64,000 bases of DNA from Alphaproteobacteria bacterium (lineage in GTDB: Bacteria > Pseudomonadota > Alphaproteobacteria > Rhizobiales > JAKIUO01): NCBI GenBank assembly GCA_024280895.1, contig JAJRPI010000014.1, positions 20,893 through 84,892 of the forward strand. Reading direction: 5' to 3'. Positions 6,938 through 46,472 of the stretch are shown here, one piece after another. How positions within the stretch are numbered: position 1 is the first letter of the stretch; every line of letters starts with the position of its first letter. The notes below the pieces were generated by a model that made no database searches, was not told the DNA's origin, and worked only from the letters and a program-made list of their open reading frames with translations. The position numbers and the translations under genes were made by a program.

Positions 6938-7836
6938 GTGAGAGCGCTGCGAACCAAGATCAACAACTGGATCAAAACAAACAACAAGCTGCCGCCTGGT
7001 TTCGCGAGCTGCGCGATCAGATTTGCGCAGCTTTTGAAAAGCTTGAAGATGATGTTAATGAGGCAATGGTACCTGGGCAGCCCGGACGATTTGTGCGTAC
7101 CCCGTGGGAGCGCACCGACCATACCAGCGCCAAGGGCGGCGGCGGCGAAATGTCGATGATGCACGGCCGCATGTTCGAAAAGGTCGGCGTGCACATCTCC
7201 ACCGTTCATGGCGAGTTCGCGCCCGAATTTCGCAAACAGATCCCCGGGACAGAGGAAGATCCACGTTTTTGGGCGGCGGGCATTTCCCTCATTGCCCATC
7301 CCCACAACCCCAATGTGCCAGCCGTTCATATGAATACCCGCTTTGTGGTGACAACGAAATCGTGGTTTGGCGGTGGCGCCGACCTCACACCTGTACTTGA
7401 TCGTCGCCGTAATCAGACAGACGCCGATACTTTGTCTTTTCACGAGGCCATGAAATCGGCTTGTGACATGCACGATGTGGCCGACTATGAGCACTATAAA
7501 AAATGGTGTGAAGAATATTTCTACCTGCCCCACCGTGATGAACCACGCGGCATTGGCGGCATTTTTTATGACCGGCTTAATAGCGGTTCTTTTGCTGACG
7601 ATCTGGCCTTCACCACCGATGTAGGACGCGGTTTTCTGGCCGTCTATCCAATGATCGTGCGGCGCAATATGAACGAACCGTGGACGCCAGAAGATCGCGA
7701 AGAACAGCTGATCCGGCGGGGACGCTATGTGGAATTTAACCTGCTGCATGACCGCGGCACGATCTTTGGCCTCAAAACCGGCGGCAATATAGACAGCATT
7801 TTATCCTCTATGCCGCCAGTGGTGAAATGGCCCTAG
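6934..7836 (+). CDS. hemF: oxygen-dependent coproporphyrinogen III oxidase
   Basis: [40 protein letters not shown]. Confidence 0.98.
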
Positions 7837-7851
7837 GTGAAATTGCGAATG

Positions 7852-7913
7852 AAGTATAACAATATACACATAAGTATAACAATATATTGTTATACATTGA
7901 TAACTTTGTTATA
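7852..7913. promoter_or_regulatory. operator-like array: direct repeat plus perfect 22-bp palindrome
   Basis: AAGTATAACAATATA at 7852 and 7872; GTATAACAATATATTGTTATAC (7874-7895) is a perfect palindrome; a further GTTATA at 7908. Confidence 0.6.
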
Positions 7914-7921
7914 TATCCAAT

Positions 7922-9103
7922 ATGGATCAAATTAGAAACCCCTTTGCCCCCGGCGCGGGCTCCAAACCGCCAGCTTTGGCCGGGCGAGACGACATTATTT
8001 CAGATGCTGAGATTGCCCTTCAACGGATCATCATCGGCAGGCATGACAAATCCCAAATTCTTTTGGGTTTGCGTGGAACCGGTAAAACGGTATTGCTCAA
8101 CAAAATTGAAGAGCTGGCGGAAAAGCATGGCCACCTGACCTCTTTTATAGAAGCACCGGAAGGCAAATCTCTCGCCACTCTGCTCTATCCCAAGATCTCT
8201 CAGGTGCTACGCAAGCTCTCACTTGTTGAAAACGCCAAAGCAAAAGCCCACGACGCCAAACGCGCTTTGCGCTCGTTTGCCAGCACTTTCAGAGTAAAGA
8301 TGGGGGACTTCGAGGTTTCTGTTGATCCAGAGAGCGGCGTTGCTGATAGCGGCAATCTTGAATTTGATTTAACCGAGCTTTTTGTAAAAGTTGGCGAAAC
8401 AGCAAAAATTGCAGGCAAAGCCTGGACACTCTTGATCGATGAGGTTCAATACCTGTCTGAAGAAGAGCTGGCGTCTTTGATTGTTGCCATACATCGCATT
8501 GGGCAAAAACAGTTACCAATTATGTTTTTTGGTGCCGGATTGCCCCAAACAGCCGCCCTCACTGGTGACGCCAAATCATATGCCGAGCGGCTTTTTAACT
8601 ATCCAGCCATAGGCCCTCTTGATGAGGTGTTTGCAATCATTGCCATAAAACAGCCCATTGAAGAAGAAGAAAAGGCCATAACGGATGAAGCTCTTGATAT
8701 GATCATCAAGCAAACCGAGGGCTACCCCTACTTCTTGCAGGAGTGGGCGTTTCAGGCATGGAATATCGCGGACCAATCGCCGATCGACAAGGATGATGTA
8801 GAGGCTGCATCAATTGCCGCTCTTCAACGACTTGATGACGGCTTTTTTCGCGTTCGCTATGCGCGCCTCACCCCCAAGGAGCGCGAATATGTGATGGCTA
8901 TGGCAAGTCTTGGCAAGGGACCATACAGATCTTCAGATGTTGCTGACGTGCTGAAAGGCAATGTCAGGTCATATGGACCACGCCGCGCAAAAATAATCAG
9001 CAAAGGAATGATATACAGCCCCGCACACGGAGATATTGCGTTTACAGTCCCACTATTTGAGGAATATCTCCAGCGGCTCAAAGACGGGGAAAAGCAGATA
9101 TAA
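7922..9103 (+). CDS. AAA/STAND-like ATP-binding protein with probable C-terminal winged helix
   Basis: NPF..G..P..LAGR N-terminus, Walker A GLRGTGKT, Walker B LLIDE, GYPYFLQ, C-terminal SSDVADVL...KGMIY...FTVPLF. Confidence 0.85.
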   Translation: MDQIRNPFAPGAGSKPPALAGRDDIISDAEIALQRIIIGRHDKSQILLGLRGTGKTVLLNKIEELAEKHGHLTSFIEAPEGKSLATLLYPKISQVLRKLSLVENAKAKAHDAKRALRSFASTFRVKMGDFEVSVDPESGVADSGNLEFDLTELFVKVGETAKIAGKAWTLLIDEVQYLSEEELASLIVAIHRIGQKQLPIMFFGAGLPQTAALTGDAKSYAERLFNYPAIGPLDEVFAIIAIKQPIEEEEKAITDEALDMIIKQTEGYPYFLQEWAFQAWNIADQSPIDKDDVEAASIAALQRLDDGFFRVRYARLTPKEREYVMAMASLGKGPYRSSDVADVLKGNVRSYGPRRAKIISKGMIYSPAHGDIAFTVPLFEEYLQRLKDGEKQI

Positions 9104-39522: not shown

Positions 39523-40824
39523 ATGTCGTCTTTGCGCGAGAATGAACCTCACCATATTCACCTCAATCTTAATGTGAGGGGGCTCAAACCATCCGCCACG
39601 CTCGCGATCAATGAGAAATCCAAACAGTTACAAGACGACGGGCACGAGATATTTCGCCTTGGGCTTGGCCAATCACCGTTTCCGGTTCCCGATATTTTGG
39701 TGGAAGAACTGAAAAAAAATGCCCATCAAAAAGACTATCTGGCGGTCAAGGGGCTGGCCCCTTTGCGCGAGGTTATTGCCGCCCACTATCAACGCCGCGA
39801 AGGCGTCACCTATGGCCTTGATGATGTGCTTATCGGGCCCGGCTCCAAAGAGCTGATGTTTCTCATACAGCTTGTCTATTATGGGGATCTGGTGATCCCG
39901 ACACCAAGCTGGGTGTCTTACGCCCCGCAAGCCTCGATCATTGGCCGCAATGTGCACTGGATCAAAGCGCGCGAAGATGATGGCTGGCGCTTGTCGGCGC
40001 ACGTGCTCGAAGAGCATTGCCGCCCCGACCCAACGCGCCCGCGCATCGTCATTTTAAATTATCCAAACAACCCCACCGGCACCAGCTATAGCGACCAAGA
40101 GCTTGAGAAACTGGCGCGCGTGGCAAGGCGTTATAAAGTCATATTGCTATCCGACGAGATATATGGCGAAACCCGCTTTGACGGCAAGCATGTCTCCATC
40201 GCCAGGCATTACCCCGAAGGCACCATCATTAGTGGCGGCCTGTCAAAATGGGCGGGTGCCGGTGGTTGGCGGCTGGGCTGCTTTATCTTTCCAAAGCAGT
40301 TGCATTGGTTGCGCGATGCCATTGCGGTTGCGGCCAGCGAAACCTTTACCTCGACCAGTGCTCCCATTCAATATGCGGCCATCAAGGCGTATGAAAACAG
40401 CAATGAGCTGCAACAATATATTGGCGATACGCGGCGCGTGCTGGAGCGGGTTGGCATGTTTATGCACGACGAGCTTAAACAGGCAGGGCTCAAGCTAAGC
40501 GCCCCCGATGGCGGTTTTTACCTATTGCCATCATTTGAAAATCACAAGCAAAAGCTCAATGCGCGTGGCATCATGACCAGCTCCGACCTTTCAAGCAAAT
40601 TGCTGGAAGAAACAGGCGTCGCCGCGCTGCCCGGCTCTGACTTTGGCCTGCCGGAGGAGCTTTTGTGTCTGCGTGTTGCTTACGTTGATTTTGATGGCAC
40701 CAATGCGCTTGCCCAAACGGCGAAAATTGCCTCCTGCGATCCCCTGCCCGATGATTTCATGGATAAAAACGCACCGCGCATTGTCGAGGCCACCAAGCGC
40801 ATCGTGCAATGGCTTGAAAAATAA
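39523..40824 (+). CDS. class I/II PLP-dependent aminotransferase
   Basis: NYPNNPTG, SDEIY, GLSKWAGAGGWRLG. Confidence 0.92.
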   Translation: MSSLRENEPHHIHLNLNVRGLKPSATLAINEKSKQLQDDGHEIFRLGLGQSPFPVPDILVEELKKNAHQKDYLAVKGLAPLREVIAAHYQRREGVTYGLDDVLIGPGSKELMFLIQLVYYGDLVIPTPSWVSYAPQASIIGRNVHWIKAREDDGWRLSAHVLEEHCRPDPTRPRIVILNYPNNPTGTSYSDQELEKLARVARRYKVILLSDEIYGETRFDGKHVSIARHYPEGTIISGGLSKWAGAGGWRLGCFIFPKQLHWLRDAIAVAASETFTSTSAPIQYAAIKAYENSNELQQYIGDTRRVLERVGMFMHDELKQAGLKLSAPDGGFYLLPSFENHKQKLNARGIMTSSDLSSKLLEETGVAALPGSDFGLPEELLCLRVAYVDFDGTNALAQTAKIASCDPLPDDFMDKNAPRIVEATKRIVQWLEK

Positions 40825-40827
40825 TCT

Positions 40828-43800
40828 TTATTCTGGATCAAGGGTGCGCAACACGGAGCTGTTCGTGCTCCCTTGTTTTTGTCCAAGCTTGCGGGCCGGG
40901 ACATAAACCGGCTGCTGAATATCTTTTTTCTTGAAACGATTGCGAAACTCGTTGGCCAGGCTTTTTTCATCGTCCAGATCGAACTGGCGATCCAGATAAC
41001 GCTTCACTTCAATGATCTCGATACGATTGCGCCCGGCCTTTTTGCCCGGTAAATCCGCTTTTCTATCGGTCAGAGCTTTCAAGAAAGCGTAAGAAAAAAG
41101 CCCGTTACCACGTTCATTGAATGGACGCGATGGATCGATCGCATATTTGCGTTGGTCCAGCGAATATTGCCCTGCCATCCCGGAAAACAGATAATGCGCC
41201 GAGAGCACCTGATCTTGAAATTCGGCGCTGATGAGACCGGGGTCAAAGGGCACCGCATCAGGATTGCCGACCGGTACGCGGCAAGCATCAAACACCACCA
41301 GTTTTTCCGCGCTGATTTGCTTGAGGGCGCCAATCAGATCTTCGCTGGTAAATACCTGTTCCTTAATGCTCTCCTTGGTCAAAGCCGGGTCCGTTGTATA
41401 GGTGACAAAGGCACTGCGGCCCTTGTCCTTGTTATAGGGATGAATGAAGCCGTGCCCTGAAAAGTGAAAGAAGAACAGATCATTGCTCAGCTCTTCGGCA
41501 CGATCAGAATTAACAATATTGGTAAGGGCTTGCAAAATGCCAGCCTTTGTCGGTTCATAGCGCTGCACATAGGGTAGTGCTGTTAAATCATTGAGCTGCT
41601 TTGTCGTTGAACGGCCCTTTGGCGAGACGATCAGCGAGATATTGATGCTTGAAAAATCCGGCGACAAGCCAGAATCTTTGAGCGAGCGCTTTTGATGATC
41701 ATCGACAAATAGCTGGGCAATATCAAGTGCATCATTTTGCGTATATTGCAGGTCATAACTACTAAATTTATGTTTTGAAATACCGATAATGATGGCCCAC
41801 AAGCGGCGCTTTTTGGGTTTTGCCAGCTTGCCTTGCCAGATCAGCGCGTGACATGGCCCCGCTTTTTCATCAATATGAAAACACACATGCACGGCGCGAT
41901 TGCTGCTGCGGGCCGTTGCGGGTAACTCCACATCGAGAGCCAAAGCTCCTTGCTGGCTCAACGGGATTGATTTATCGGCGCTAATGCGTTGGCCATCAAC
42001 AATTTTCACCATATTGACGCCAGATCCGGTTTTGATCTGTAAATTGCGCGCCGATTTTGGCAAGCCGCTGGTATCAATTTGAAAGCGAACGGTTTTATTG
42101 GTGACCTCGGCCAGTTCAAAGGGCAGTGCTACGCGCAAGCCTATTTGCGTCCCTTGGGCAGCCTGTACCGCTTCATTGATGATGGGTAAGAACCCGCGCA
42201 CCTTGGCTTGCGGGATCTCCTGATCAAGCGCTAGCTTGATGGCTTTATCATCATAGAGCCGCAACAATTTGCGGTAAGGAATGAAACTGACCTTGCCTGC
42301 TTGGCGCTCAACCTGCCAACCGATCTGTTTTTTGGCGCGCGGATCATTGGCAAATTTTCCAGAGGGCAGCCAGGCCGTCCAGATCCATTCTCCCAGCTCA
42401 TCTTGAGCAATGTGAACGGACAGCAATTTGTGTAATTTACAAGACTTATTGGTGCGCTCAACACGGTACCAGCGCAAGGTGCCATCGCTATGACCAACAA
42501 TCGCGGTGCGCCCGTCCGGGGTTAAATTGACCCGGAACGCTTCATGATCTATGCGCATTCGGCACAAGGTTTTTGCCCCTGCCTCATCATCAATTTCTAC
42601 CAGCCGCAAAAAATCGCTACTGCCCAGTAGAACCAGTTTTTTATCAGCAACCAGCGCCGCCGAGCGATAGAAATCATCGCGCACGGGATGATCTTCGCGC
42701 AAAGGCTCACCGTAAATGATCGGCGGTTTGCGGCTATTGCGCCAGCCCTCAATAAGGTTTTTATCGTGATTGGGGGCGCTAACCCCCTCGGCATCTCCAT
42801 CAAGGCGTGTCAGGCGGCGTTTACTGAGATCAAATTGCAAGCGCAAGCGTTCCCCATGCCGGCCACGGTAATCATCGAACACCACTTTTTTGCCGCTCAT
42901 CGAGACCGAGAACGCCATGCCGCCATCGCGAAAATCAGCTGCAATATTACGATCGGACAGCTCTTGCCCCTCAAGGAGTTCCAGCGCTTCGCCTTCATAA
43001 TCAATCAGTCCGATGCGGCGCTGGGTGGCATATAGCAAGCCGCCGCGCTTGGGCAATGCGATCAGCTCCATGACGCGGTCCGTGCCAACGGGAATAAAGG
43101 CCGGGTCTTCATCTTCGTCCAAAGCGGAAAAACGGGCGATACAGATATCGGCAACCGAGCTCACCTCTCCCAAGATGAGATCAGGATTGACAAAGGTGCA
43201 CCAGAACACGCCGCCCGCAAAAACCCACTCTTCATCATCCTGCGTTTTGACCCACGCCACTTGCTCCAGCGAGGTCTGATTGGCATCGGCATTTTGTTTG
43301 CGATCAAGATAGGCTGGATGTTTGAGATGATCTTCGCTGATGGCAAACGGCTTACGCGCGACTTTCAAACTATCAGCGCTCAAAACCGCAGCACGTAAAT
43401 GAACGCCGCCATCAAGGGAGCGGTTGCGCCGATCCCCGACCAGCAGTTTTGAACCATCTGGCGAAAAGCTCACATCCCCCGGGCGCTCGAGTTTCAGCGC
43501 CGCTGGCTTGGCAAACGCCAACCGCTTGGCTTGATCACCATCTAACCCATAGGACCGGACCCCACTATCCCCCGAGGTCACCAGCCATAATTTGCTATTG
43601 TTTTTAGAGAACGCCAGACCAGTGGTATCGGGCTTGGCATCCACATCCAGCGCCTTGCCAACTTGTGAGCATTGATCGCCGCCGCCATAATCCTTGTCAT
43701 CGCTATAAAACAGCTTCCAGTCGGGAGCCTGCCAGACACGCAAGCCGCAACCATCGCTTAGCACCGCCGCCAGATATTTTCCATCGCGCGAAAAACGCAA

Positions 43801-44262
43801 GGCCTGCGGCCTTGTGGCGATGCCTTTGATCTGCGCCAACTGCTCCCCGCTTTTACGGTCCAGCAGATAGATTTTCGCTGTGCCAGAGATAGGCAAACCA
43901 TCGCTCGTCGCCCGTGGTGGCACAGAGCTTGCGACCAACTTGCCATCCGCGCTGATCGCCACCCCATGTGCTCGCTTGCGTTGTTCTTTGCGGATCGGCA
44001 CACGCAGGATTGATTTGGATTGCAAATCATCCAGCGGCCAGACATTGATGGCCTTATAGGGTGAACTCGACACCACATAGCGCTCACTGGCATCCACGTC
44101 CAACCGCCACAAAGTGGCGGCGAAAGGGGAATTGATGCGCAGGGTCGGCTTGGCTTTTTGCGGTTCAGCGGCGATTGAGTGAGCGGTCGCCATCAATGAT
44201 GCCGCGAACATCAAAAAGGCTGCGATCAAAAGTCTTTTGCCTAATTTATCATGTAAGAACAT
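40828..44262 (-). CDS. exported WD40 beta-propeller plus caspase-like (peptidase C14) protein
   Basis: Signal peptide; WD-like repeats (FSRDGKYLA, FSPDGSKLL, LTPDGRTAIVGHSDGTLRWY); caspase fold LWAIIIGIS..Y.L.Y..NDA, FHFSGHG, VFDACR, GLFSYAFL.AL. Confidence 0.88.
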   Translation of the reverse strand: MFLHDKLGKRLLIAAFLMFAASLMATAHSIAAEPQKAKPTLRINSPFAATLWRLDVDASERYVVSSSPYKAINVWPLDDLQSKSILRVPIRKEQRKRAHGVAISADGKLVASSVPPRATSDGLPISGTAKIYLLDRKSGEQLAQIKGIATRPQALRFSRDGKYLAAVLSDGCGLRVWQAPDWKLFYSDDKDYGGGDQCSQVGKALDVDAKPDTTGLAFSKNNSKLWLVTSGDSGVRSYGLDGDQAKRLAFAKPAALKLERPGDVSFSPDGSKLLVGDRRNRSLDGGVHLRAAVLSADSLKVARKPFAISEDHLKHPAYLDRKQNADANQTSLEQVAWVKTQDDEEWVFAGGVFWCTFVNPDLILGEVSSVADICIARFSALDEDEDPAFIPVGTDRVMELIALPKRGGLLYATQRRIGLIDYEGEALELLEGQELSDRNIAADFRDGGMAFSVSMSGKKVVFDDYRGRHGERLRLQFDLSKRRLTRLDGDAEGVSAPNHDKNLIEGWRNSRKPPIIYGEPLREDHPVRDDFYRSAALVADKKLVLLGSSDFLRLVEIDDEAGAKTLCRMRIDHEAFRVNLTPDGRTAIVGHSDGTLRWYRVERTNKSCKLHKLLSVHIAQDELGEWIWTAWLPSGKFANDPRAKKQIGWQVERQAGKVSFIPYRKLLRLYDDKAIKLALDQEIPQAKVRGFLPIINEAVQAAQGTQIGLRVALPFELAEVTNKTVRFQIDTSGLPKSARNLQIKTGSGVNMVKIVDGQRISADKSIPLSQQGALALDVELPATARSSNRAVHVCFHIDEKAGPCHALIWQGKLAKPKKRRLWAIIIGISKHKFSSYDLQYTQNDALDIAQLFVDDHQKRSLKDSGLSPDFSSINISLIVSPKGRSTTKQLNDLTALPYVQRYEPTKAGILQALTNIVNSDRAEELSNDLFFFHFSGHGFIHPYNKDKGRSAFVTYTTDPALTKESIKEQVFTSEDLIGALKQISAEKLVVFDACRVPVGNPDAVPFDPGLISAEFQDQVLSAHYLFSGMAGQYSLDQRKYAIDPSRPFNERGNGLFSYAFLKALTDRKADLPGKKAGRNRIEIIEVKRYLDRQFDLDDEKSLANEFRNRFKKKDIQQPVYVPARKLGQKQGSTNSSVLRTLDPE

Positions 44263-44267
44263 ATGGC

Positions 44268-45899
44268 TTATTCCGCAACTTTCACCAGCAAGTCCAATGG
44301 CCGTGTGAGCTTGCTCATATTAAACAATTCGCCATAGCGCTCATAATAGCCGGTGAGCGTGATGGTGGAGTGTGCGACTTCTTTTTCCTTGGTGCCAGCT
44401 GGTAGCGCAAATCGCAAATCCACATATTCGCCATAGCCAAGTTTGAGCCGCTTTTGATCAAGCTTCGCCAAATCCTCAACATCAGGTTTGAGAATTTGCT
44501 GCTTGCCGTTTTTCAACTCGATCATCAAACTGGCTTGATCAATATGGGCCAGCTCTGGTTCGCGCTCGTGAATGCGGAACCTAGATTTGAACCCCTCAAA
44601 GCGTCGCTGGTCAGATTGTTCCAGACCAACGCCGTTGGCTTTGTCGAGCATTTTACCGGTATTGATATAGTCATTAAGTTCGCTCGACCAGACATGCAGG
44701 TAAGGACAAGAGCCGCCATCATCGCCGGTGGTCAGCGAAACGAAATTTGAGGACTGCCCCTCCAGATCAAGGCGCTCACCATTTACTTCAATCCCTTTTA
44801 AAAGCACTTCTGGCCCATACACATATCCCGGTAGTTTAAAACCGGCTTGCTGATCGTCATCGACAATAAAGGCCATGCGCTGAAACAACAGGGCCTTGTC
44901 GCCGGGGTGCAAGATCAATTCGCCAGTCGCAAGGGAAACCGCCTGCTTTTTACGTAAAGCCGTGGATTTTGAAAAGCTGCGCAGTTTGGTCTTTTTACCT
45001 TTGGCCCCCAGCAAATGCTTGATGGTAATCACATCGGTAGAAGTGTTTTCGATCACTGCGATATCAACCAGCATGGCGCGCTCGGTATAATTAAGCACCC
45101 AGCGCGCCGCATAGCCCGCGCAATCTGCCGCTTGTTCAGCATTGCCATAAATGACCATGAATTTACGCGGCACACCCTTGCGGGTAATATAGTCGAGCAT
45201 GGAGAAATATTTATTGCCCATGGAGCCTTCGCGGGATTTTTTCAATGCTGTTATCAAACGATTATAATCGCTCAATCTCTTCTTGAAGTTTTTGAAATCG
45301 CGGCGCTTGGCATAGCGCCAGATCTTTTTAATCCGCTGGCCATATTCGGTAACCGTTTTGCTCTTATAGGCTTTTGGCACCCGGCCATTATATTCCAGAG
45401 AACGCAGATCATCAGCGGCGGGGAAAACACTATATTCCAGCGGCTTATACCATCCCCCTATCGAGCGACGGATGGGGCTCTTGCCGGTGCATTTATTGTC
45501 ATCCTTCATGCCCTGCCCCTTGCCAGCGGCAATCACTGTATAGACCTCGCAACCCCAACCTTGGGTATATTCGCCAAACTTGTCCATCAATGTTTTATAT
45601 TCGCGATACACATCATTTTGGATCAGCTTTGGCTTGCCAAACATGGTTTTGAAACCGGCAGGCAAGTTGCCCGCCAAAATACTATGAGCGACAAAATCAG
45701 TGACGCGGTGAAAGCGCACGCGCACGCTTTGGTTCCTCTGCGTTTGGCAAAGATAATCACGCAACCGCATATTATTGCCGCCGCTTTTTATGATGCGGAT
45801 ATCCTGCAAGCACTGTCCGGCAAAAAGAGGGGTCGACTGGATCGGCAAAAAAGACAAGAGACAAACAAAACCGATGGAACGACAGAGCCAACGCAACAT
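44268..45899 (-). CDS. hypothetical exported protein with a C-terminal SCP(Y/F)-type domain
   Basis: GAGGGAG RBS, signal peptide ending LFA, six Cys in the mature part, GGSCPYLHVW...ERE.E...ID...GYY domain. Ends 5 nt before the caspase ATG. Confidence 0.8.
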   Translation of the reverse strand: MLRWLCRSIGFVCLLSFLPIQSTPLFAGQCLQDIRIIKSGGNNMRLRDYLCQTQRNQSVRVRFHRVTDFVAHSILAGNLPAGFKTMFGKPKLIQNDVYREYKTLMDKFGEYTQGWGCEVYTVIAAGKGQGMKDDNKCTGKSPIRRSIGGWYKPLEYSVFPAADDLRSLEYNGRVPKAYKSKTVTEYGQRIKKIWRYAKRRDFKNFKKRLSDYNRLITALKKSREGSMGNKYFSMLDYITRKGVPRKFMVIYGNAEQAADCAGYAARWVLNYTERAMLVDIAVIENTSTDVITIKHLLGAKGKKTKLRSFSKSTALRKKQAVSLATGELILHPGDKALLFQRMAFIVDDDQQAGFKLPGYVYGPEVLLKGIEVNGERLDLEGQSSNFVSLTTGDDGGSCPYLHVWSSELNDYINTGKMLDKANGVGLEQSDQRRFEGFKSRFRIHEREPELAHIDQASLMIELKNGKQQILKPDVEDLAKLDQKRLKLGYGEYVDLRFALPAGTKEKEVAHSTITLTGYYERYGELFNMSKLTRPLDLLVKVAE

Positions 45900-46097
45900 A
45901 AAACTCTCCCTCAAGAGGAACTGAATTAAAGATACAGGACAGAATTCAAGCAATAAAAACAATGTACCCAATTACCCCGGCACTTACAATATTGATCCTG
46001 GTTTATTCCTTGTCACCCCCTGGTAAAAACCGTAAACTAAGCAATGAGCGGGATCCTTTCCCATGCGTTCGCGGCCAATAAAATATGCGAGAAAAAA

Positions 46098-46472
46098 ATG
46101 TCCAAAACCCCTTGCGCCTTGTGGAATGTCATCGCACCCGACAATAGTGATCGCTGGAGCGAGCTGCCTGATACGGATGGCAAAGTGCTGAGTGTCACGC
46201 TGGCCGAGGACGAGGAAACCGGACACTACACGCGCCTTACCCGGTTCTTGCCCGGGGCCGATACCAGTGCTTACAAGACGCAATCACATAGCTATGTGGA
46301 AGAGATTTATATTATCGAGGGCGAGGTCTATGACGCGGTGTTCGATCGCACATTGGTAGCCGGAGATTATACCTGCCGACCACCACATGAAGATCACGGG
46401 CCATTCAAGTCTCCCAAAGGCTGTCTGGTAATGGAGATTTCTTATCCAGATGAACGCCCGGAAAAAGTCTGA
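46098..46472 (+). CDS. cupin domain protein (ChrR-like cupin)
   Basis: TRLTRFLPG, HSYVEEIYIIEG, GDYTCRPPHEDHGPF. Confidence 0.88.
   Translation: MSKTPCALWNVIAPDNSDRWSELPDTDGKVLSVTLAEDEETGHYTRLTRFLPGADTSAYKTQSHSYVEEIYIIEGEVYDAVFDRTLVAGDYTCRPPHEDHGPFKSPKGCLVMEISYPDERPEKV

Follow-up and report, generated by a model that had tools for sequence, protein, structure and literature searches.

The A-B locus and its one-sided link

We analyzed a 64,000-nucleotide (nt) window of contig JAJRPI010000014.1, which is the whole stretch of DNA under study and to which all coordinates without a prefix refer, and focused on two adjacent genes, here called A and B, whose features all lie on the minus strand. 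Gene A (44268-45899) encodes a protein of 543 amino acids (aa) from an ATG at 45899, which is predicted to be exported and belongs to an unannotated family. Gene B (40828-44262) encodes an 1144-aa protein with a predicted signal peptide, WD40 propellers, a beta-rich linker and a Peptidase_C14 (caspase) domain, and a gap of only 5 nt (44263-44267) separates the stop of A from the start of B. The pair is flanked by a convergent class I/II aminotransferase gene (39523-40824) and a divergent ChrR-like cupin gene (46044-46472), which confirmed the initial annotation of this DNA as two co-oriented open reading frames (ORFs) 5 nt apart amid metabolic genes. Both genes are present once only in their own genome, and the GC content of the locus (0.48-0.56) is the same as that of its surroundings. 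Our main finding is that the link between them is real and one-sided: the caspase subfamily of B depends on A, while A occurs without B.

The initial description of B as a propeller, a beta-rich linker and an intact caspase dyad was confirmed, with WD40/propeller Pfam matches over residues ~49-641 and Peptidase_C14 (PF00656) at residues 822-1069 (53.2 bits versus a cut-off of 21.4). The propeller region (~36-690; 42193-44157) carries conserved Cys at 172, 198, 355, 374, 567 and 608, which likely form three disulfides. The linker (~700-815; 41818-42165) is the least conserved part of the protein and has no Pfam match, with Cys794/Cys804 kept in 36 of 38 sequences. In the caspase domain (40831-41817), His937 (motif SGHG; 41452-41454) and Cys994 (motif DACR; 41281-41283) are invariant in the 38 aligned relatives, as are the acidic pocket residues D844 and D992, and S935 is kept in 36. 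By motif position, and not by structural alignment, we equated D844 and D992 with residues of the acidic S1 pocket of Trypanosoma brucei metacaspase 2 (TbMCA2), which in the available text of PMC6426788 includes Asp95 and Asp211. Because D844, D992 and S935 match this pocket by position, B is predicted to cut after Arg or Lys. Such predictions of the P1 residue can fail, since the gasdermin protease of Runella cuts after non-polar Leu (bioRxiv 10.1101/2021.06.07.447441, available part).

When 401 genomes of the order were searched with the B profile, six genomes scored above 500 bits and 20 others held generic WD40-caspases at 150 bits or less, and no score fell between these values except that of the second half of a split gene in genome G076. 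Judged by these scores, B belongs to a distinct subfamily. It is ~150-200 aa longer than the generic WD40-linker-caspases of the same order, has eight conserved non-catalytic Cys, each present in 36-38 of the 38 sequences, and is accompanied by gene A. The named members come from Alphaproteobacteria and Hyphomicrobiaceae metagenome-assembled genomes and from cultured Bradyrhizobium isolates (WP_316228497.1). Plasmids searched with a subfamily query gave no match at 1e-20.

Within the genus, both genes are adjacent in four of six genomes and absent from the other two, of which one (G005, 88% complete) keeps the aminotransferase gene with other genes downstream and one (G001) lacks the aminotransferase match too. 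In the order sample, A is adjacent in all six subfamily-B genomes and stands alone in one further genome (G229), and none of the 20 generic-caspase genomes has a match to A. A second genus of the order (196 genomes) contains the B subfamily once, with A, and contains A in four genomes, which brings the genomes with the B subfamily and A adjacent to 7/7 in total. The B profile also recovered 23 metagenomic loci, comprising 18 subfamily members and 5 generic ones, some of which are close kin (L019, L025, L026, L030 and L031). A is present in 9 of the 18 subfamily loci, including all seven with a near-complete B gene (two of these are split by frameshifts), and in none of the five generic loci; of the nine subfamily loci without A, six are contigs below 4 kb and three hold only a ~160-residue fragment of B. 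Gene orders of A>B, B>A, B>DUF900>A and divergent were seen, and because the order varies among loci, the A-B link survives rearrangement, with the pair kept at 29-34% (A) and 33-47% (B) identity. Samples of the class and the phylum (401 and 381 genomes), searched with A only, gave one and two further distant matches. The initial annotation had proposed an extracytoplasmic caspase with a dedicated partner gene and a survey of gene neighborhoods; the homologs of the two genes do co-occur, one-sidedly.

Some further observations concern the locus itself. The aminotransferase gene and B end tail to tail with 3 nt between their ends (40822-40830), leaving no space for an intergenic terminator, and scans for promoters and terminators stayed near the shuffled background (12 versus 6.7±3.0; 12 versus 8.1±3.0). 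Upstream of A, each of four congeners has a different set of genes, which suggests a rearrangement hotspot. A 304-aa plus-strand ORF (45015-45929) was rejected as an antisense shadow, because it is not listed at 220 aa or more in the loci of three congeners.

Predicted export and anatomy of protein A

Both proteins begin with a predicted Sec signal peptide, comprising residues 1-27 of A (LFA/GQC; 45819-45899) and residues 1-31 of B (44170-44262). These assignments come from a heuristic of our own (not SignalP) that looks for a basic n-region, an uncharged hydrophobic decapeptide and a small-x-small site. It was passed by A, by B, by 116 of 133 evaluable relatives of A and by 29 of 36 relatives of B, compared with 230 of 1049 (22%) long ORFs of the genome used as a control. 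This supports the Sec-type signal peptides initially described on both proteins. Beyond the N-terminus, no other hydrophobic helix was found in A or B, and the conserved Cys of both are as expected for disulfide-bonded periplasmic proteins. We therefore consider the export of A and B a well-supported inference. A motif scan of the genome gave nine caspase-type ORFs, eight with signal-like N-termini by eye, and this 3.4-Mb alphaproteobacterial genome holds an expansion of exported caspases. The eight caspase-domain genes other than B lie on C16, C40, C41, C43, C49, C59, C62 and C76, and seven have signal-like N-termini.

Protein A has no Pfam match at E≤1 and no match in NCBIfam or PADLOC, and the best E-value among Protein Data Bank (PDB) sequences is 0.29. 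Its family is large: a profile search of 1.84 billion representatives returned 478 clusters at E≤1e-30 and 1272 at E≤0.001, of which the best 150 were inspected. In an alignment of 147 sequences, N285, G362, C398, P399, E445 and E449 are invariant and C30, C51, C260, K416 and E447 are near-invariant; the paired Cys initially seen in the N-terminal part of A were borne out as C30 and C51, kept in 137 and 146 relatives, respectively. The best ESM Atlas feature scores were 0.77 (whole A) and 0.86 (C-terminal domain), all for unnamed clusters that serve as leads only. A tree of 22 homologs, built with a quick method, had long branches and did not resolve the context groups. Viral contigs searched with one A homolog gave no relative, and no long fused form (1298-3705 aa) was found among 5967 candidates, which is weak evidence; lengths of 952-1297 and below 298 aa lay outside this search. 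Three family members carry additions that are consistent with envelope anchoring, namely a peptidoglycan-binding domain (P0179), a weak SH3 match (P0205) and N-terminal membrane helices (P0020). In A itself, residues 28-225 (45225-45818) are strongly basic, with 41 Lys/Arg versus 18 Asp/Glu.

The deep model of A was confident (predicted local distance difference test, pLDDT, 89; predicted TM-score, pTM, 0.89) and consists of an N-terminal beta-hairpin with an alpha/beta region, a middle beta-sandwich and a C-terminal beta-sandwich at ~394-525 (44325-44720), which holds the invariant or near-invariant E445, E447, E449 and K416. Two models of A searched against the PDB and viral libraries showed no clear relative (TM-score by query ≤0.13), with best Z values of 6.0 and 5.5. 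The best fold row (Z 5.5, root-mean-square deviation (rmsd) 3.5, 100 aligned residues) and those after it (Z 4.9-4.3) are assorted sandwiches that match the C-terminal domain only. This domain weakly resembles carbohydrate-binding, PLAT and ApaG sandwiches (Z 4.3-5.5, rmsd 3-4.6, 84-103 aligned residues), which are tied with unrelated sandwiches. Binary-toxin, cytolysin and complement chains appeared as low-probability rows and were not credible as relatives. The fold check of the domains proposed in the initial annotation, carried out with whole-protein models, thus gave a confident model but no clear structural match.

The name SCP-domain protein, first given to A, had to be abandoned, as it fits only the G-S-C-P motif at residues 396-399. 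The CAP/SCP/TAPS family (PF00188) was rejected: A matched 0 Pfam families at E≤1, and no CAP match was found among about 60 relatives at E≤0.01. CAP domains are alpha-beta-alpha, whereas the predicted domain of A is an all-beta sandwich.

The G-S-C-P motif (44703-44714) starts the C-terminal domain, and C398 and P399 are invariant in all 147 sequences. Cys260 (45120-45122), a Cys in 144 of 147, is the putative partner of Cys398, and a disulfide between them is likely in this A subfamily as the simplest reading of conservation and Cys parity, not of coordinates. This A (P0001) has six mature Cys, an even number, and four Cys are kept in 137-147 of 147 relatives; a mutual-information test for a C260-C398 contact was dominated by invariant columns and uninformative. 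The spacing from N385 to C398 is 13 residues in 120 of the 136 sequences with both residues, and in the model a beta-strand (385-391) is followed by a short loop, with a mean pLDDT of 79-85 for residues 381-400. What had been taken for a flexible linker before the C-terminal domain is therefore a connector of fixed length.

The six residues before Cys398 are variable and mostly small or acidic, with Asp/Glu in 113 of 147 A proteins and Arg/Lys in only 16, none of them this A; the position directly before Cys398 is Ser in 139. The GSCP motif and the Glu triad (E445/E447/E449) are kept in all seven distant architectures aligned, with one Glu replaced by Asp, including two without Cys260 and several without a nearby caspase. 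They are therefore intrinsic to A and no adaptation to B. The earlier proposal of a caspase cleavage site at GGS-CP was not supported by these data: the spacer has a fixed length, and the motif persists in homologs without a caspase nearby. A cut at this junction is poorly supported because the junction lacks the Arg/Lys that the acidic pocket of B likely requires, and we consider it highly improbable. The related suggestion of autoprocessing at GGS-CP keeps the invariance of C398 in its favor, but no Hint or other autoprocessing family was recognized by sequence. No Hint profile beginning at the Cys matched A in Pfam or NCBIfam. The whole-protein fold searches returned weak beta-sandwich rows only, and a literature search for GSCP as a motif found no occurrence in the papers it listed.

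Genomic contexts of A and B homologs

The A family recurs beside, or fused to, signaling and conflict modules. Twelve lineages were found through A, four with subfamily B and eight without. A different C14 gene lies within 5 kb of A in three of the eight (G1286, G1232 and Calothrix plasmid AP025022) but in none of the other five (G229, G563, G1005, G1078 and G1198); by a rough estimate, a random gene of the genome analyzed here has a C14 gene within 5 kb ~3% of the time. In G1286, A lies directly behind a TIR-nSTAND1-membrane helix-WD40 gene, and in G1232, a row of trypsin < A < unknown diverges from a generic exported WD40-caspase gene 1.3 kb from A. The G229 cluster (L012:5651-16137) runs from a TIR-nSTAND1-membrane helix-TPR gene through A, a lipase-subtilase fusion and an unknown 258-aa protein to a TPR-S-trypsin gene, and it looks like an undescribed conflict island.

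On the Calothrix plasmid (L042:5204-8675), a caspase gene is followed by EAD10 with three predicted membrane helices and by the A core, which lies in a separate frame (7635-8675) and matches the profile at E 1e-31. The EAD10-A gene seems to be broken between 7458 and 7635, and its annotation is incomplete. In G563 (L043:4485-7148), an HNH nuclease is fused to an A core without a signal peptide, with the motif CGSCP, and is followed by a RES-domain gene; this fusion and the RES gene form a candidate defense pair. In the EAD10 and HNH contexts, the A core occupies positions where a recognition domain is expected. What unites the neighbors of A in G229, G1286 and G1232 is the coupling of a repeat scaffold with an effector, the most frequent kind of partner of A.

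The loci of B vary in their further genes. In three of them, a third gene directly follows B (L020:4135-5523, L022:8346-9755 and L023:8546-9973) and encodes a signal peptide, an acyl carrier protein (ACP)-like domain and a DUF900 alpha/beta hydrolase. The ACP-like domain matches PP-binding at E 0.004-0.006, which is below the cut-off, and its Asp-Ser motif is altered. It is unusual for a carrier-protein-like fusion of this kind to be exported; the genome analyzed here has a DUF900 relative at another site (C56:50502-52556). Other B loci add phospholipase D, a second caspase or CHAT/C25 proteases. Tandem A copies lie beside B in G1238 (L065:7083-19901) and at L023:779-5000, with one copy frameshifted and one a fragment, and in G1238 these are followed by genes for phospholipase D and for a double clan-CD protein (CHAT/C25). 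In G076 (L046:2-5327 and L013), an apparent operon of A, B, an exported phospholipase D and a second exported caspase extends over two contigs.

A possible role for A and its alternatives

We tentatively favor a mechanism in which A serves as the sensor or activator of a propeller-gated periplasmic caspase, because B needs A, A serves several partners, and the A core sits where sensor domains usually do. Both proteins are predicted to be exported, and B is a caspase-fold protease with its intact His/Cys dyad behind the WD40 propellers. A ligand might bind the acidic site of the C-terminal sandwich of A (E445/E447/E449, K416 and GSCP), possibly with a metal ion, which is the weakest step. As a sensing or activating partner, A would bind the propellers of B, and this binding would switch on the cleavage, predicted to occur after Arg/Lys, of other envelope proteins. 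The pair may thus act in envelope-level surveillance or defense.

Several points weigh against this mechanism. A does not need B, because it occurs without subfamily B in 8 of the 12 lineages, and no caspase motif or B-profile match was found among the ORFs 5-10 kb to either side in G563, G1005, G1078 and G1198. The seven genomes with B and A represent four lineages and could reflect one block-inherited cassette. The fold matches of A fall within the range given by a common arrangement alone. The immediate neighbors scanned are aminotransferase, cupin, TetR and HPP genes, with no other defense-type gene among them. Additionally, A and B are under purifying selection (dN/dS 0.08-0.12 in six of six pairwise comparisons among four congeners), and within the genus neither gene evolves as fast as an arms race would lead one to expect (dN/dS about 0.1). 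The tandem and orphan A copies would fit an inhibitor or immunity role equally well.

We ranked three other roles of A below that of sensor or activator. The first of these, for which we see an outside chance, is that A is a substrate or effector of B, cut either in a surface loop, after a basic residue, or at GGS-CP, which would free or activate a domain held by the C260-C398 disulfide. Gasdermin systems place the protease beside its substrate, and the Leu-specific Runella enzyme belongs to such a system (bioRxiv 10.1101/2021.06.07.447441, available part); B always has A, and the loops at residues 251-270 and 381-400 rank among those that the mature model predicts with least confidence. However, the junction of this A lacks Arg/Lys, as do all but 16 of its 147 relatives, Ser prevails at position -1, the GSCP motif is no less conserved in homologs without a nearby caspase, and sequence and fold searches recognized no effector activity in A. 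Rather unlikely, and next in order, is that A and B make no contact and act in parallel as parts of a co-inherited cassette of exported enzymes that includes DUF900 hydrolase, phospholipase D, trypsin and subtilase. The free exchange of accessory genes between loci, the abundance of exported caspases in the genome (8 of 9 motif-bearing ORFs are signal-like by eye) and the restriction of the pair to four genome lineages argue for such a cassette. Yet A alone among the neighbors is found at all intact B loci, despite inversions and changes of gene order, whereas the DUF900 gene lies beside B in three of the seven near-complete metagenomic loci and is absent from the locus in the window.

An inhibitor or immunity protein that silences B in the periplasm of its producer comes last of the three and seems improbable. 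It would suit the one-sided dependence, with B never found without A and A often alone, the tandem copies of A that adjoin B in L023 and G1238, and the greater divergence of A than of B (mean 31% versus 39% over 29 distant pairs). It leaves unexplained, however, why the A core is fused to HNH and why it lies behind EAD10-membrane helices or TIR-STAND genes, and B has no recognizable delivery domain. Compatible with the favored mechanism as well as with these alternatives, although still less probable, would be a self-cleavage of A between Ser397 and Cys398 through an N-to-S acyl shift, possibly triggered by metal at the Glu triad and independent of B. It could account for C398 and P399, which are invariant in 147/147 and kept in G1078 and P0021, where Cys260 is missing and the Cys count is odd, and in the predicted cytoplasmic HNH fusion. 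A disulfide, however, explains the presence of Cys260 in 144 of 147 sequences of this A subfamily and the even number of mature Cys in this A, and no Hint or other autoprocessing family was matched by sequence.

Exported WD40-caspases are a known kind. A survey of 671 prokaryotic caspase homologs counted 73 WD40 fusions and read N-terminal helices as likely signal peptides in 46 single-domain cases (Asplund-Samuelsson et al. 2012, PMC3501461). These orthocaspases/metacaspases (PF00656) share the His/Cys dyad, the WD40 fusion and the N-terminal helices with B, but the available text of PMC3501461 describes no A-like partner. Our literature search showed that exported bacterial caspase homologs have been counted since 2012 and found no study of their function. 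Bacterial gasdermin-protease operons (Johnson et al., bioRxiv 10.1101/2021.06.07.447441, available part) likewise place a repeat-fused C14 protease beside a dedicated partner gene. However, gasdermin systems act in the cytoplasm on a pore-forming substrate, whereas A and B carry export signals by our heuristic; no adjacent gasdermin was seen, as A had no match in Pfam, NCBIfam or PADLOC and the flanking genes are the aminotransferase and the cupin. According to the available parts of PMC7159879 (Kaur et al. 2020) and PMC8195603 (Kaur et al. 2021), caspases in VMAP systems always have an alpha/beta-hydrolase neighbor and EAD10 marks conflict systems. The EAD/VMAP/EACC systems described there combine caspases with alpha/beta hydrolase, TIR, STAND, trypsin, HNH and EAD10 parts, and such parts surround the homologs of A and B, with EAD10 seen only at the distant Calothrix locus. 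In contrast, the A-B locus has no MoxR-vWA, EAD or EACC gene among its immediate neighbors, and A-B is predicted to lie wholly outside the cytoplasm.

The initial annotation proposed an undescribed system, which holds for the A family and its pairing but not for exported WD40-caspases, which are common. The novelty lies in the A family and in the one-sided way in which this caspase subfamily is tied to it. A literature search on the pair and on the A family found nothing, and the supplementary tables of PMC7159879 and PMC8195603, which were outside that search, might list A-family proteins.

The A-B locus offers a small testable case, with one protease subfamily, one constant partner and a copy of the protease in cultured Bradyrhizobium. 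A also matters in itself: its family is large and unannotated, its model is confident, no solved structure is clearly related to it, and its Cys-Pro/Glu-triad site is invariant. More broadly, and with considerable doubt, A might represent a new family of envelope pattern-recognition modules plugged into different effectors, which would activate a periplasmic propeller-gated caspase here and elsewhere signal through transmembrane TIR-STAND receptors, EAD10 adaptors or an HNH nuclease; A-B would then be an inflammasome-like protease switch that is wholly extracytoplasmic. If A is indeed a sensor, periplasmic proteolysis would be linked to bacterial conflict systems.

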